From NCBI GenBank assembly GCA_048885925.1, contig JBHLLG010000049.1:1-21537 (forward strand): a DNA stretch of 21,537 bases, given 5' to 3'. Position 1 is the first letter of the stretch. The number at the start of each line of letters is the position of its first letter. Made by a program: the position numbers and the translations under genes. Source of the stretch: Candidatus Hermodarchaeota archaeon (GTDB taxonomy: Archaea; Asgardarchaeota; Lokiarchaeia; Sigyniarchaeales; SOKP01). Below the pieces are notes generated by a model, which made no database searches, had not been told where the DNA came from, and saw nothing but the letters and a program-made list of their open reading frames with translations. Below, one piece after another: positions 10,540-16,761 of the stretch.

Positions 10540-12060
10540 ATGGATATTGAAAAAATTGGTTTTGATAACGAGAAATATCTAAACGACCAATCTAAGAGTA
10601 TTTTGGATCGATCTACTCAATTTGGGAACAAACTATATCTTGAATTTGGTGGAAAACTGGTATATGATTATCATGCAGCAAGAGTTCTCCCTGGATTCGA
10701 TCCAAATGTTAAAATGAGGCTTTTAAAGCGTCTTGGAGATAAAAGTGAGGTAATCTTATGTATCTACTCTGGAGATATAGAAAGAAAAAAGATTCGTGCA
10801 GATTTTGGAATAACTTATGACACTGATACTTTGAAATTAATTGATGATCTTCGGGATGGAGGAATTAAAGTATGTGCTGTAGTAGTGACACGGTATAATG
10901 GACAGCAAATCGTTAAGCAATTTATGAATAAACTTGAGCGTAGAGATATAAAGGTGTATACGCATCATTCAATCAAAGGCTATCCAACAAATATTGATTT
11001 AATCGTAAGTGAAGAAGGATACGGTGCAAATGAGTATGTCAAAACCTCTAAACCGATAATAATTGTTTCTGGACCTGGACCAGGTAGTGGGAAAATGGCA
11101 ACTTGCTTGTCTCAAATATATCATGAACATAAAAGAGGGATTGAGGCGGGTTATGCAAAGTTCGAAACCTTTCCAATATGGAATTTACCTTTAAAGCATC
11201 CTGTAAATATGGCATATGAAGCCGCAACTGCAGATCTAGGGGATTTTAATCAGATAGATCCATTCCATCTTGAGAATTATAATATAAAATCAACCAATTA
11301 TAATAGAGATGTAGAAATATTTCCAGTTGTCAAGAAAATTATGCTAAAACTTATGGGTAACAAATTAGTATACAAATCTCCTACTGATATGGGTGTGAAC
11401 ACGGCAGGTTTTGCTATTACTGATGATGATCTTGTGCAACAAGCATCCAAACAAGAAATAATCCGGAGATACTTTCGATATAACTGTGAGTATGCCATGG
11501 GTGTTGCAAATAAAAAAACCGTACAGAGAGCAGAATTGCTTATGAAAGAATTAAATCTCACACCATTGGATCGGAACGTTGTCGAACATGCTCGGCAAGC
11601 TTCTATAGAAGCTCAAGAAAAAGGGAAAGGGAATGAAGGTGTATTTGCTGGAGCCGCATTACAATTGAAGAATGGAACTATTATAACAGGAAATAATTCT
11701 CAATTGATGCACGCAGCCTCCGCCCTAATTTTAAATGCTATTAAAGTATTAGCTGGGATTCCTGATAATATTCATCTTTTATCTCCAAATATATTAAACT
11801 CTATAAGTAAGCTAAAATCAGATGTTTTCAACCATAAACAATTAAGTCTTAATCTTGAAGAAACTCTTATAGCATTAAGCATTAGCGCAGATTTCAACCC
11901 ATCTGCTCAAGTTGCAATGGAAAAACTTAAAGATCTTAAGGGATGCGAGATGCATTCAACCCATATACCAACACAAGGAGACGAAGCTGGTTTGAGACGA
12001 TTAGGACTTAACATAACCTCAGATCCTATTTTTTCATCAAAAAGGCTTTTTATAGCTTAA
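10540..12060 (+). CDS. DUF1846 (UPF0371) family protein
   Basis: IGFDNEKYL, KLYLEFGGKL..DYHAARVLPGF, GPGSGKMATCLSQ, GYAKFETFPIWNLPLKHPVN.AYEAATADL, NYNRDVEIFP, YKSPTDMGVN, ASKQEIIRRY. Confidence 0.88.
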   Translation: MDIEKIGFDNEKYLNDQSKSILDRSTQFGNKLYLEFGGKLVYDYHAARVLPGFDPNVKMRLLKRLGDKSEVILCIYSGDIERKKIRADFGITYDTDTLKLIDDLRDGGIKVCAVVVTRYNGQQIVKQFMNKLERRDIKVYTHHSIKGYPTNIDLIVSEEGYGANEYVKTSKPIIIVSGPGPGSGKMATCLSQIYHEHKRGIEAGYAKFETFPIWNLPLKHPVNMAYEAATADLGDFNQIDPFHLENYNIKSTNYNRDVEIFPVVKKIMLKLMGNKLVYKSPTDMGVNTAGFAITDDDLVQQASKQEIIRRYFRYNCEYAMGVANKKTVQRAELLMKELNLTPLDRNVVEHARQASIEAQEKGKGNEGVFAGAALQLKNGTIITGNNSQLMHAASALILNAIKVLAGIPDNIHLLSPNILNSISKLKSDVFNHKQLSLNLEETLIALSISADFNPSAQVAMEKLKDLKGCEMHSTHIPTQGDEAGLRRLGLNITSDPIFSSKRLFIA

Positions 12061-12167
12061 TTGATAGAATGTTTTAGAAATTCTTTTAAAAATTGGTTTA
12101 TTTTTATAATTTTGTTTATATGGTTTGATTTAATAATATATTATTTTATAAAGAATTATTATAAATT

Positions 12168-13880
12168 ATGAACACTAAAAGTAAATTTGTATTTGTAACA
12201 GGCGGTGTGATGTCTGGCATAATATTATAATATTTCATTAGAATATGCTAAGGTAAGGGCGTCGCAACAGCCAGTATAGGTAAAGTACTACAATTTCGTG
12301 GCTTTAATGTATCAGTCGTAAAAATTGACCCTTATTTGAATGTAGATCCCGGAACTCTAAATCCAGTTGAACATGGAGAATGTTTTATTACCGAGAATGT
12401 GTGGGATTTCAGACCTGTTCCTGGTTCTGATGAAAGATCATATAGAATTTCTGAAATCGATCAAGATTTTGGAACGTATTCTAGGATTTTAGGTATTGAA
12501 ATGCATCCTTCCCATAATATTACATCGGGTCAAATTTATCTTTCTACGATCCTAAGTGAGAGGAAAGGGAGATTTTTAGGAAAAACAGTCCAAATTATAC
12601 CTCATGTAACAGATATAATCAAAGAAAGATTAATGGAAATTGCTGAAAAAGAAAATTTAGATGTATTATTAATTGAATGTGGTGGAACTGTTGGAGATTT
12701 AGAATCTAGTATATTTTTAGAAGCGTTTCGACAATTAAAATTAGAATATCCGAAACGTACGGCATTTGTACATGTTACACTTATTCCATATTCTAAGGCT
12801 GTAGGTCAACAAAAATCGAAACCAACCCAACACTCTGTTAAAATGCTTCAAAGTTTGGGACTACAACCAGATATAATAATTGGAAGAAGTGAAAAATTAT
12901 TAGATAAAAATATTAAGAGAAAAATATCTTTATATTCTAACGTGCCTGAAAATGCTGTTGTCTCAAATCCCGATTTGGAGATTGTCTATGAATTACCTCT
13001 TTTATTCGAGAAGCAAGGTTTAGGAGATCTTTTATGTGAACTAATAGATCTAAAGGCAAAGTTAGTAGCTTACAATGAAGTAACAAATTACTCCGAATGG
13101 GTGAAAATGGTTGAATTGTTTAAAAATACTAAAGAATCTGTCAAAATTGCGATGCCAGGTAAATATTTTAACATTTCTGATTCATATATCTCAATAAATG
13201 TAGCTTTAGAAGATGCTGCTGCACATCTTGGATATAAAACAGATTTAAAAATGATTAATATTGAAGAAAATGTTGATATTGCAGAACAACTTAAAGATTG
13301 CGATGGAATTTTGCTTACACCTGGATTCGGAGAAAGAGCAGTAGAGGGTATGATAAAATCGGCAGAATATGCCATGGGAAAGAAAGTCCCATTCCTAGGG
13401 ATTTGTTTTGGAGCTCAGTTATTTTTTGTGGCTTTCTGTAGAAAATATCTTGGATTTGAAAAGGCAAATTCAACAGAAATAGATCCTAATACTCCATATC
13501 CAGTTATTGATCTCTTAGAAAATCAGAAAGACGTTAAAGAGATTGGGGGTACTATGAGATTAGGTGCTCAAAAAATAATAGTTGAAAAAGGTACAAGGCT
13601 TTATAATGCGTACAAGAAAGATGTGATTTATGAACGATATAGACATAGATATCATATTCAAGAGAGATTTATCACGGATGAGGCTAAAGAAAAGGGTATA
13701 CTAGTATCAAGTAGAGATGAAACTGGAAAAATTATTAATAGTATCGAATTAAATAGAGAAGATCACTGGATGGTAGGTACCCAATTTCATCCAGAATTTA
13801 AATCCCGTCCTTATAACCCATCTCCAATTTATTTTGATTTTATTAAAGAATGTGTTAAGTACAAAAATTCAAAAGTATAA
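12168..13880 (+). CDS. pyrG: CTP synthase, split gene: join(12168..12221,12252..13880), 560 aa after removing a 30-nt intron
   Basis: Exon 1 gives MNTKSKFVFVTGGVMSGI. Exon 2 begins GKGVATASIGKVLQFRGFNVSVVKIDPYLNVDPGT and continues with GKTVQIIPHVTD, ECGGTVGDLES, KSKPTQHSV, LGICFG (catalytic Cys), GGTMRLG, ERYRHRY and QFHPEF. The ORF-track start at 12336 is an artefact of the insert. Confidence 0.93.
12222..12251 (+). other. Putative 30-nt archaeal bulge-helix-bulge/loop (BHB/BHL) intron in the pyrG mRNA
   Basis: Insert ATATTATAATATTTCATTAGAATATGCTAA with in-frame TAA at 12228-30 and 12249-51. Central helix GGCA(12216-19)/TGCT(12246-49). Bulge TA^A (12220-22). Intron stem TATT-A-TAAT/ATTA-G-AATA with loop ATTTC. 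3' bulge/loop begins AA^G (12250-52). Exon-exon stem 12206-12215/12257-12266. Confidence 0.82.
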
Positions 13881-13902
13881 TAATTTTATATCATCTCTTT
13901 TG

Positions 13903-16761
13903 TTATATTATATTTGTTTTCGATATTTCTACTAGAGATTTAATGTGATTAACAAATTTTTCATTTGAGCATAGTGATAATAATTCTTTTTTAGCTAATT
14001 CAGCATTATCATTTTTTTCTCTCAAGTCGAAAGGGGATATAATGCCGTTTGAACTTTTCTTCTTTAATTCTCCAATGACATGATCGATTTCTTGATTAAA
14101 ATCATTCAAGTTTTCAAAATAATCCGATAATGCTGCTGGAAGGTTTGGATGGACACTTTTTAGTGAATTTGTAAATTTTAGTAAATTTTGAGAAAAACTT
14201 ATTCTATCTTCCATAACTTTGCTGATTTCTTCAGATTCATGAAGAAGTTTAAACATAATGTTATAAAATTTAAGTTCATTTTTATCTCGATTGAGTGAGT
14301 TTGTTAAATTTCTAATTTTAGTAGTTGTATCAAAATCATTCATTTGTTCATATTCCTTTATTTTATTTTCGGTTTCATGAATCTCTAGATTAAGTAAATC
14401 AAGCTTCTGATTACTTAGATAAGTATCCAATTTCATTATTTTCTTTTGATACTCCTGTTCATCAAGAATAATACGAGTAGTACTAAAAATTTCTGGTAAA
14501 GGATCATATAAATACTTTAATATTAAAATATATATAGTATGTTCAGTATTAGCTATAGGTCTTGTATAAAATTCTATAGCATGTATATTCTCACTAAACT
14601 CTACAAGAAATTTGAAAAATTTTCTTATTTCTAGCATATTTTTTTGAGCATCAAATGCTATAGAATACATTTCTTCGAAATACTTTTTATAGAACCTTCT
14701 TGCTAATTCAAGTTCATTTAAGAAATTATTTATTAGTTGTATTAACTCTCCTGATACGCCTGGTTTTTTGTAGTCTTCACCAATATCTTTTAAACGCTCC
14801 TCTTCTTTGACAGTGATCATTTTGGTAATAAAATCTGGAAAATCTTTTGTAACGATATCATATGTTTTAATAAAATATCTTTTCTTGTTTAATATAGGTA
14901 TAATTGTATTTATTGTCATAGTTCTCTTTTGAATTGCTTTCAAATCTTCTTCCAGTATTCTATTAATATGCTCATCAATTTTCTTTTTATTTTCTATATT
15001 TGATACTTTTCTATCTTTTAATAATTGATTAAGCCGAATTCCTCTTATTTCTGTATTTCGACCACCGAAAATCTCCACAAAAATGCCTCCAAGAATTCTA
15101 AGAGCTAAAGCTCCTGCTAATAACTTGTCCTTCGCTTCATCAACTAAAATCTGATCGGTTAACATATTCATTAACCTAAACATAAATGTTTTTTCTTTCT
15201 CCCTAGGTATCTCGTTAATTTTGATTCTGTATTTTTCGATAATTTGATCCTCTGAAAATTTATTTTCCCATAAAAAGTCTAATACTCGATCTCCTTCTGC
15301 TTTAGGAAGAATATCCAGATATCGAGGTATTATTTCAATTAATGCTTTTGCCCATTTTGAATGTTCTATAGCTAATGGTATTTCTTCATGATAATCCGCT
15401 AATAAATCATGAATCAATCCCCCTTTTTCGATAACTTTGGGACCATCATATCTACCTAGCGTGTGTACTAGTATTTCATCAAAATTAGGAGTTAGAGAGA
15501 ATGGCATGCGAATTTTAATTTTTTCTAAAAATTCAAGAAATAAATCAAAAAGACCACGAACTTTATGATTCGATCGATTTATAATGAACTGATTTATTTC
15601 TGCTTTATTTAAATCGCCAATATCAACTAAAGAGTTAGCAAACATAATTGCTCCATTAAAAATTAATTCAACTTTTTCTGGTTCATAATAGGAAGCAGTT
15701 TCTGAACATTTAAATAGATATTTTGCTAGATCAGACCCAAGATATTCTCTATGTTGCTCTGGAATTTTTCCTATTGCACTTAATAGATCCTGCATTAGCA
15801 TTTGAATCATGTCTTGTCCAAGTATAAGTGAATATTTCTTTTCTGCTCTTTTCAAAAATGCTTCTATATCTGAGAATTGAACTCGCTCTTTTTCTTCTCC
15901 AAAAAGATGAGTTAATATATCTTCAAATTTAGTACTATTTACTAATAAATTTCCTCTTTTAGCTTCTTCCAAAGATGCATCGAATACATCCAATAAAGAA
16001 TGCGACTTATTATTACTTCTCATTCTTATTTCTTGATTAATTTGGTCCCATGTTTTTCCACCTAAATCTTTTATAGAATCAGAAAATAATAAAATATGAG
16101 CTAATATATTGTCGATTGTTTCTGTAGAAAATTTATCAATATTTTGAGACAATTTAAATAAATATTTTGAAATTTCAGAGCTCATTTGATCTCTATGTAA
16201 TTCATCGATTTGTTCAAATGATTTCATAATCCTTTCTAAATAAGCGTTAAATTTCTCTTCTCCCAGTTTCATAAAAAAGCTCTTCTCAGCACGTTTAAGA
16301 AACAATTCAACATCATTCATCTGAGAGATTTCTGCCTTTCCACCAACCAGGTATGTTAATAAATCTTCAAATCTTTCGAGATTTTCAATAGTTTCCCCTT
16401 TTGTCGCTCTATTAACAAATGCACTTAATAAATCGGAAAGATTTCGCATTTCATTATTACTTCTATTTATTAGCATCTGATTTACCTGATTTCTGTCCCG
16501 ATTTACTAGATCTTTTAGCGATCTTGCAAATATGAGAATGGATTTTAAAACAGCCTCTGTAATCACAGGAGAGACATCTTCAATCTCCTGTGAATAATTG
16601 AAAAGAAATTTTGGTATTTCAGAACCAATTATACTTCTAAATTTAGCTGGAATTTCATTAGTAGCTTTCTTTATACTATTTAAAATAGCTGATGTCTTAT
16701 TCTCTCCTAGTTTTTTATTAAAAGAATGTTCAGCCCTTTTAAAAAATACTTCCATAATCAA
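13903..16761 (-). CDS. Large hypothetical alpha-helical protein with three tandem 148-aa repeats and a helical/coiled-coil C-terminal half
   Basis: 952-aa uninterrupted ORF; I recognise no catalytic motif. KRAE recurs at aa 8, 156 and 304; RSN at aa 100, 248 and 396. Confidence 0.8.
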   Translation of the reverse strand: MIMEVFFKRAEHSFNKKLGENKTSAILNSIKKATNEIPAKFRSIIGSEIPKFLFNYSQEIEDVSPVITEAVLKSILIFARSLKDLVNRDRNQVNQMLINRSNNEMRNLSDLLSAFVNRATKGETIENLERFEDLLTYLVGGKAEISQMNDVELFLKRAEKSFFMKLGEEKFNAYLERIMKSFEQIDELHRDQMSSEISKYLFKLSQNIDKFSTETIDNILAHILLFSDSIKDLGGKTWDQINQEIRMRSNNKSHSLLDVFDASLEEAKRGNLLVNSTKFEDILTHLFGEEKERVQFSDIEAFLKRAEKKYSLILGQDMIQMLMQDLLSAIGKIPEQHREYLGSDLAKYLFKCSETASYYEPEKVELIFNGAIMFANSLVDIGDLNKAEINQFIINRSNHKVRGLFDLFLEFLEKIKIRMPFSLTPNFDEILVHTLGRYDGPKVIEKGGLIHDLLADYHEEIPLAIEHSKWAKALIEIIPRYLDILPKAEGDRVLDFLWENKFSEDQIIEKYRIKINEIPREKEKTFMFRLMNMLTDQILVDEAKDKLLAGALALRILGGIFVEIFGGRNTEIRGIRLNQLLKDRKVSNIENKKKIDEHINRILEEDLKAIQKRTMTINTIIPILNKKRYFIKTYDIVTKDFPDFITKMITVKEEERLKDIGEDYKKPGVSGELIQLINNFLNELELARRFYKKYFEEMYSIAFDAQKNMLEIRKFFKFLVEFSENIHAIEFYTRPIANTEHTIYILILKYLYDPLPEIFSTTRIILDEQEYQKKIMKLDTYLSNQKLDLLNLEIHETENKIKEYEQMNDFDTTTKIRNLTNSLNRDKNELKFYNIMFKLLHESEEISKVMEDRISFSQNLLKFTNSLKSVHPNLPAALSDYFENLNDFNQEIDHVIGELKKKSSNGIISPFDLREKNDNAELAKKELLSLCSNEKFVNHIKSLVEISKTNII
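15442..16755 (-). repeat. Three tandem intragenic repeats of 148 codons (444 nt)
   Basis: Units start near 16755, 16311 and 15867. Shared pattern E.F.KRAE......LG ... S(E/D)..K(Y/F)LF..S ... F..S..D ... NQ....RSN.....L.D ... F(E/D)(D/E).L....G. Confidence 0.85.

Follow-up and report, generated by a model that had tools for sequence, protein, structure and literature searches.

The 21,537-nucleotide (nt) window analysed here, that is, the whole stretch of DNA from the Candidatus Hermodarchaeota genome G000 (G-numbers denote compared genomes and C-numbers contigs), contains a gene for CTP synthase, pyrG, whose coding sequence is broken by an insert of 30 nt. The gene opens on the forward strand with an ATG at 12168, and the last two of its first 18 codons are GGC ATA (Gly-Ile, 12216-12221). 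The insert then brings in-frame TAA codons at 12228-12230 and 12249-12251, and downstream the reading frame continues unchanged as GKGVATASIG... to a stop codon at 13878-13880. An earlier note on this DNA had given the same insert coordinates, the two stops and the unchanged frame, all of which are borne out by the window sequence. In intronless orthologues the motif split by the insert reads TGGVMSGIGKG. The parts of the gene are as follows.

12168..12221, forward strand: pyrG exon 1, start codon to the Gly-Ile of the ATP-site loop, collinear with the first 18 residues of intact orthologues
12222..12251 (equivalently 12221-12250), forward strand: putative 30-nt pyrG intron with two in-frame TAA codons; same-site insert in G009, G003, G001, G227 and G216
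12252..13880, forward strand: pyrG exon 2, 542 codons plus stop; CTP synthase profile NF003792 at E = 5e-187, profile positions 17-532 of 534

Since an A stands at both 12221 and 12251, shifting the insert by one base gives the same sequence. Exon 2 alone scores 622.8 bits against NF003792 (cut-off 308) and 597.6 bits against TIGR00337 (cut-off 462.75) in NCBIfam, and as both CTP synthase profiles match it only from position 17, exon 1 is the missing start; exons 1 and 2 together make up a full-length PyrG including the N-terminal ATP-site loop. The earlier note had raised the question of a second intact pyrG, and a search of G000 (95% complete, 181 contigs) returned a single match and no further copy. 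Comparison of sequences makes it very probable that 12222-12251 is an archaeal intron of the bulge-helix-bulge (BHB) type lying inside the pyrG coding sequence, of the same class as the intron of cbf5.

An intact orthologue served as query for a scan of 399 genomes of the phylum, in which the junctions were then read directly. A 30-nt insert at the identical codon boundary (site 1) is found in 6 of 36 congeneric pyrG sequences from 35 genomes (G000, G009, G003, G001, G227 and G216), while the other 30 are uninterrupted, reading TGGVMSGIGKG with no residue gained or lost, so that the prediction of the earlier note that excision would restore the PyrG motif without gain or loss of a residue agrees with 30 natural sequences. 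Outside the genus, no site-1 insert was seen in 12 sequences with a visible N-terminus from other genera of the order, G195 apart, nor in the 15 contigs with a visible junction among 17 metagenome contigs. G195, from another genus of the family, carries a 32-nt frameshifting insert at site 1 (L035:1725-1804, minus strand), for which a 26-nt excision is also frame-compatible and would add Gly-Lys. Among the carriers the inserts diverge at 3 to about 14 of 30 positions, and in a pyrG tree (FastTree, 40 sequences) the six 30-nt carriers fall within one subclade, interspersed with intronless sequences. Diverged inserts at one site in several species are therefore diverged alleles recovered in independent assemblies rather than an artefact. 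G000 is a metagenome-type assembly in 181 contigs with 4.4% contamination, which speaks for an assembly or sequencing error, and an assembly artefact had been considered in the earlier note; with diverged inserts at the same site in independent assemblies of five other species, hence in 6 of 35 congeneric genomes plus one other genus, we give this explanation practically no weight. In the G227 bin there are two pyrG copies, of which one has the intron and the other lacks it (C37:1968-3668 and C214:2426-4099; 91% and 87% identical to the query), and since contamination of this bin is about 8%, two strains may be mixed in it.

Carrier genes are as constrained as uninterrupted ones. The ratio of non-synonymous to synonymous substitution rates (dN/dS, or omega) among the six carriers is 0.034-0.067 (15 of 15 pairs, dS 0.73-1.56), and among non-carriers it lies between 0.028 and 0.073, with 0.045 as the median (28 pairs). 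Strong constraint on a frame that stops after 20 codons means that the insert must be removed or bypassed, and carrier pyrG is functional and under purifying selection as in non-carriers; the decay that the earlier note had considered, with dN/dS near 1, is not seen. These values bear on the possibility that the insertion has inactivated the gene, pyrG being a young pseudogene in the course of loss in a cell living on salvaged cytidine nucleotides. Besides the two in-frame stops 18 codons into the gene, this reading can draw on its patchy presence in the genus, which at the same time is a point against splicing. No pyrG match was obtained in the phylum scan for 11 of 52 congeners, and in five of these, which are 95-99% complete (G012, G014, G016, G209 and G217), a search for the CTP synthase N-domain (PF06418) gave no hit. 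The same five also have no homologue of the DUF1846 gene that lies upstream of pyrG in the window, a joint absence that may reflect lineage-level loss of the locus. pyrG is thus dispensable somewhere in the genus while strongly constrained where it is present, and the description of pyrG as an essential gene in the earlier note was too strong for this genus. A pseudogene nevertheless fits poorly with six species retaining the insert in a frame of 560 codons that is intact in all other respects, with a carrier omega no different from that of non-carriers at dS about 1, with the compensatory changes through which the insert evolves (see below) and with a frameshifting insert of this kind in the single-copy, non-dispensable gene for uL11 in 6 of 20 congeners. 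We therefore consider it a very unlikely account of the locus.

Turning to the RNA, the sequence around the putative intron can fold into the following elements, all on the forward strand.

12206..12215: 5' strand of an exon-exon helix, pairing with 12257-12266 after a 4-7-nt loop (10 pairs, 4 G-U)
12216..12219: exon strand (GGCA) of the central helix H, 4/4 pairs with 12246-12249, one G-U
12220..12222: 5' bulge (U-A-A) flanked by H and h', predicted cut at 12221/12222
12223..12245: intron hairpin h', 12223-12231 with 12237-12245 around the loop 12232-12236, 8/9 pairs, one A.G
12246..12249: intron strand (UGCU) of H, pairing with 12216-12219
12250..12252: 3' bulge (A-A-G) closed by the single pair 12215-12253, predicted cut at 12251/12252
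12257..12266: 3' strand of the exon-exon helix, recovered by RNAalifold

On re-reading the window sequence, the five structural elements of the earlier note and their coordinates proved correct, including an unpaired stretch of 7 nt (12250-12256) as the fold was drawn there. We also agree that the motif is relaxed, its 3' half being non-canonical: the central helix is complete (4/4 pairs) and h' supplies an outer helix of at least 2 base pairs (bp), but the 3' bulge is closed by one pair followed by unpaired bases, so that the motif is to be classed as HBh' and not as hBHBh'. The archaeal tRNA splicing endonuclease, EndA, cuts after the second nucleotide of a bulge. Cuts placed accordingly in silico remove exactly 30 nt and restore the sequence of intronless orthologues; the predicted cuts UA^A and AA^G thus hold in silico as the junctions that the protein independently requires.

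To quantify this, the structure of the earlier note was counted on the alignment of the six carriers (A1, 138 cells), with the partners slid by 1-3 columns as controls. Across the carriers 87.0% of cells are paired, compared to 29-53% in the slid controls, and five pairs change on both sides, compared to 0-1; none of 500 shuffles attained the observed covariation score of 0.206. The hairpin h' is paired in 94.4% of cells, is recovered by RNAalifold and shows compensatory changes in 3 of its 9 pairs (A-U to U-A, U-A to C-G and A-U to G-C). In H, where all four pairs form in three carriers, G216 has replaced a C-G pair by U-A, via a change of the Gly codon from GGC to GGT and of the intron base from G to A. 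The compensatory changes that the earlier note had proposed to look for are thus present in h', with one in H. The codons on the exon strand of H are GGC ATA or GGT ATA in 7/7 carriers and in 10/57 non-carriers (which mostly have GGA), counts that are not independent as the sequences are related, and the pair 12215-12253 (columns 18/56) is U-G or C-G in 6/6 carriers. The exon-exon helix is paired in 80% of cells, although it is weak evidence on its own because it is partly implied by the Gly-Gly-Val and Thr-Ala codons. If the protein alignment is taken to fix the junction, 18 of 200,000 composition-preserving insert shuffles yield all four H pairs plus 8 or more of the nine hairpin pairs, as do 12 of 300,000 random 30-mers drawn from G000. 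Folding energy gives a modest signal (z = -2.51 for 73 nt, with 3 of 200 shuffles folding as well), and a search of Rfam returned only a sub-threshold match to snoZ165 (21.9 bits, cut-off 90).

A second site in pyrG presents the same picture. Near residue 93, between ...DQDFGT and ERFLGI, a 31-nt frameshifting insert interrupts the gene in 8 genomes belonging to four further genera of the family (G177, G185-G190 and G198), at the following positions.

Site-2 inserts: L036:1980-2050, L037:2020-2090, L038:843-913, L039:2050-2120, L040:1473-1543 (minus strand), L041:612-682, L042:577-647, L043:797-867

Here the BHB motif is nearly canonical, with an outer helix h of 4-5 bp, three of four pairs in H and changes on both sides in 8/9 hairpin pairs. 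Cells are paired in 87.5% of cases, compared to 29-41% when slid, and the score was reached by 0 of 500 shuffles. The junction required by the reading frame is the one given by the BHB geometry.

The enzymes that such an intron would need are encoded in the genome, as the earlier note had suggested checking. A catalytic EndA subunit is present on contig C22 as a 198-residue open reading frame (ORF; PF01974 at 101.7 bits, PF02778, TIGR00324 at E = 3e-32), and RtcB on contig C12 (E = 5e-171). Two EndA paralogues score above the Pfam cut-off in 14 of 17 congeners, among them the carriers G001, G003 and G009; in a protein alignment the alpha-type has an N-terminal insert relative to the beta-type, and the G000 protein presumably has the His-containing catalytic motif that is missing from the second paralogue of the congeners. 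Of the 31 tRNAs of G000, ARAGORN predicts 19 to contain an intron, in most cases one of 9-146 nt. A passage in PMC5829648 attributes to Asgard archaea an (alpha-beta)2 EndA with an L1 loop linked to broad substrate specificity, and PMC2738675 states that cbf5 mRNA introns often use a relaxed motif and that recognising the relaxed motif outside tRNA is characteristic of the heterotetrameric enzyme. That BHB cutting takes place inside the bulge is stated in bioRxiv 10.64898/2026.10.13.758758.

Taken together, presence and absence among species, selection, covariation and the machinery genes favour the overall reading of the earlier note, a BHB-type mRNA intron in pyrG, and suggest the following mechanism. 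In the pre-mRNA, 12216-12219 would pair with 12246-12249 to form H, while the intron folds into the 9-bp hairpin h'. In this relaxed HBh' fold, a 3-nt bulge would hold the 5' splice site and a weakly closed bulge or loop the 3' site, and we infer that EndA recognises H and the bulges and cuts at 12221/12222 and 12251/12252. RtcB would then join the exons and probably circularise the 30-mer. A CTP synthase whose ATP-site loop is intact would be made only from the spliced mRNA; translation of the unspliced one would stop after 20 codons.

A number of observations weigh against this interpretation. RNA sequencing runs were looked for over 11500-14000 of the window, and none came up. Three of the six carriers form only 3/4 pairs in H, and the G195 insert fits the canonical BHB register poorly (H 2/4 pairs). 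The outer helix h is 1 bp long in five carriers and 2 bp in G001, without a canonical h, and on the 3' side four further unpaired nucleotides lie between the 12215-12253 pair and the 9-bp exon-exon helix. In the minimum-free-energy fold of the window, H is extended to 6 bp and the 5' bulge absorbed, and in the RNAalifold consensus of the six carriers H is not formed, columns 20-21 pairing with 56-57 instead; given this alternative pairing, the sole compensatory change in H could be a coincidence. When the junction is left free, a 158-nt region of the window offers 331 BHB-like placements, of which the true one comes 12th, and a simple BHB score puts the true junction first in 4/7 site-1 and 3/8 site-2 sequences, with the G195 insert unranked. 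BHB-likeness alone is unspecific in this AT-rich DNA. As for the machinery, a second, beta-like and non-catalytic-looking EndA was not found in G000 with Pfam at E up to 10 or with phmmer against 6,929 ORFs, and tblastn with the second paralogues of G003 and G009 gave no match in G000; most likely this reflects an assembly gap. Finally, homology-blind genome-wide scans of G000 for ORF-breaking 27-34-nt elements with BHB-like geometry showed no excess over slid-register controls (273 vs 269-279, 316 vs 327-340 and 64 vs 55-62). In view of these scans, further introns were accepted only where Pfam domains or orthologues confirm continuity of the protein.

By this measure at least ten further genes of G000 are split by BHB-like inserts of 27-34 nt, those listed below measuring 28-32 nt, with protein motifs or Pfam domains continuing across the predicted junction.

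C2 56851-56880 (L107): EF-2-like GTPase, GTP_EFTU 2-35 / 49-187
C12 62467-62497 (L108), 31 nt: Ras-family GTPase, Ras 1-34 / 38-157
C37 24652-24681 (L109): UppS, Prenyltransf from position 6
C16 1810-1839 (L173): acetyl-CoA synthase beta, ACS_CODH_B_C 1-154 / 156-242
C31 18957-18988 (L174): ferredoxin, CX2CX2CX3C motif split
C4 38336-38367 (L175): Prismane/CO dehydrogenase, Prismane 183-457 / 458-512
C15 18539-18569 (L176): JAB/MPN protease, JAB/MPN 5-97 of 117 in exon 1
C20 5250-5277 (L177), 28 nt: uL11, Ribosomal_L11_N 1-25 / 27-58
C5 45896-45925 (L178): Glycos_transf_3 phosphorylase
C7 85463-85492 (L179): amidohydrolase, Amidohydro_3 1-291 / 307-472

For three of the ten (EF-2-like, UppS and uL11) we compared relatives, and in each case intronless orthologues encode exactly the product of the predicted cuts. 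Among congeneric EF-2-like loci whose junction is visible, 8 of 22 contain the insert, each with all four H pairs, and none of the 7 loci from other genera does; the UppS insert is present in 5 of 18 loci read, a further 12 being left unread by the search pattern; and the frameshifting uL11 insert is present in 6 of 20 loci, with 3 further loci unread. That a frameshifted single-copy uL11 is kept in six species rules out a dispensable pseudogene for this class of inserts. The subsets of introns vary by species: G009 has those of pyrG and UppS and is without those of the EF-2-like gene and uL11, and G006 has those of UppS and uL11 and is without that of pyrG. The earlier note was thus right about the pyrG insert and overlooked that it is one of many such candidates in the genome. 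We think it likely that, throughout this Promethearchaeota genus and its family, mini-introns of about 27-34 nt that the tRNA-splicing machinery takes out are common among protein-coding genes, with at least 11 genes in G000 and rapid gain and loss between species. The pyrG (12216-12222) and uL11 (L177) introns are both preceded by exon GGCATA(A), the junctions of the other genes being different, and this shared context could be chance or a preferred insertion context.

The wider set of inserts bears on two further explanations. The pyrG insert might be translated, through read-through of stop codons or an altered code, to give a 10-residue loop, and its length, divisible by three with the frame kept on both sides, would allow for this. 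Yet the G000 insert has TAA twice and the G001 insert TAG and TGA, so that all three stop codons would need recoding, when 16 long ORFs of the window end normally under translation table 11; related inserts of 28, 31 and 32 nt shift the frame, and the extra residues would fall inside the conserved GGVxSxxGKG loop. The chance of translation therefore appears negligible. A split protein was also considered as a reading of the pyrG insert and was rejected.

Alternatively, the insert could be bypassed or removed without EndA and RtcB, by ribosomal hopping or by another hairpin-recognising RNA-processing enzyme. Hopping is known from the translational bypass of phage T4 gene 60, which resembles pyrG in that the ORF is interrupted by a short untranslated stretch containing a stop codon and a hairpin, and the stop codon soon after the break and the stable hairpin in the gap do look superficially bypass-like; the poor 3' side of the BHB motif and the failure of RNAalifold to predict H likewise leave room for another route. 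T4 gene 60, however, needs matched take-off and landing codons, which are absent in pyrG, where ATA at 12219-12221 has no ATA just before 12252. Unlike gene 60, moreover, the inserts described here share an RNA geometry across unrelated genes: what those of eleven genes have in common is the helix-bulge arrangement, and no signal at the level of peptide or codon. Changes at the wobble positions of the exon go together with changes in the intron strand of H, and the BHB-predicted cuts reproduce orthologue sequences exactly in four genes (pyrG, EF-2-like, UppS and uL11). Such a route thus seems improbable, if somewhat less so than a pseudogene, and excision as a BHB intron remains our preferred reading.

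The nearest known counterpart is the cbf5 pre-mRNA intron of Crenarchaeota, reportedly the subject of work by Watanabe in 2002 and Yoshinari in 2006. In both systems the intron is sporadically gained and lost among related species and annotation pipelines mis-call the host gene, and both hosts would have a hetero-oligomeric, broad-specificity EndA, here going by what a passage in PMC5829648 says of Asgard archaea. In contrast, cbf5 is one gene in Crenarchaeota, whereas here pyrG and at least ten others are concerned in Promethearchaeota/Asgard, and splicing is experimentally confirmed for cbf5 whereas for pyrG it is predicted from sequence. According to PMC2738675 (Yokobori 2009), cbf5 was in 2009 the only gene for which archaeal pre-mRNA splicing had been confirmed.

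Among RNAs, the non-canonical HBh' tRNA introns of Asgard archaea, as presented in bioRxiv 10.64898/2026.10.13.758758 and PMC11291895, show the same motif classes, presumed enzymes and repeated gain and loss. Lengths are also similar, going by the ARAGORN tRNA introns of G000. The former source calls HBh' with 4/4 central pairs canonical and with 3/4 pairs relaxed for tRNA introns; the word 'mRNA' is absent from its main text. The pyrG case differs from these in that the intron lies in an mRNA, where recognition gets no help from a tRNA body, and in that the exon half of the motif must be built from codons.

A more distant parallel is the splicing of HAC1 and XBP1 mRNA by the IRE1 nuclease with RtcB-type ligation, the XBP1 intron being 26 nt long. 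Shared features would be protein-only, spliceosome-independent excision of a short coding intron, ligation by a tRNA ligase and the fact that splicing determines which protein is made; the HAC1/XBP1 system differs in that IRE1 is a nuclease with its own stem-loop motif and in being stress-regulated. The IRE1 route is mentioned in a passage of PMC13149111.

In the full-text literature searched, with supplements outside its scope and articles partly accessible, we met with no description of a pyrG intron, nor of BHB-type introns in protein-coding genes of Asgard archaea, in line with the earlier note, which knew of no intron described in pyrG. Protein-coding introns cut by the tRNA endonuclease have been confirmed in archaea for essentially one gene, cbf5; pyrG would be the second host gene, apparently one of a set, and in the lineage closest to eukaryotes. 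It would bear on the origin of intron-bearing coding genes and of protein-only splicing as in HAC1/XBP1, and the presence/absence polymorphism offers a natural experiment on intron gain and loss. In practice, gene callers will truncate or drop such genes, and metabolic reconstructions may wrongly score CTP synthesis, acetyl-CoA synthase, CO dehydrogenase or a ribosomal protein as defective. Should the multi-gene reading hold, archaea would have their first mRNA-intron system extending over multiple genes, situated in the prokaryotes most closely related to eukaryotes, and Asgard gene catalogues would systematically mis-call such genes as truncated or missing.

Some candidates from the G000 scans were rejected as introns. 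At C5 49821-49850 (minus strand) an HdrA-like reading frame continues across an in-frame TGA that lies in a Cys-rich motif and that we take to be possibly a selenocysteine codon; C32 21126-21154 reads through as L37Ae-like; and C37 9726-9758 and C22 43873-43900 are the starts of adjacent genes. In the window itself, a 952-residue ORF directly downstream of pyrG (13903-16761, minus strand) matches no Pfam family at E up to 0.001. Further candidates for introns in G000 are C5 13512-13538 (Arf/RagA-like), C87 1824-1850 (MetRS) and C23 32688-32764 (Zn-ADH). The MetRS ORF (L111:454-2496, forward strand) has no ATG, GTG or TTG in its first 170 codons, the nearest upstream ATG being out of frame, and the Zn-ADH ORF (L112:467-1432, forward strand) is preceded, about 11 nt before its conserved N-terminus, by an ATG-AAG that is out of frame; the starts of both could be very short introns or unusual starts.

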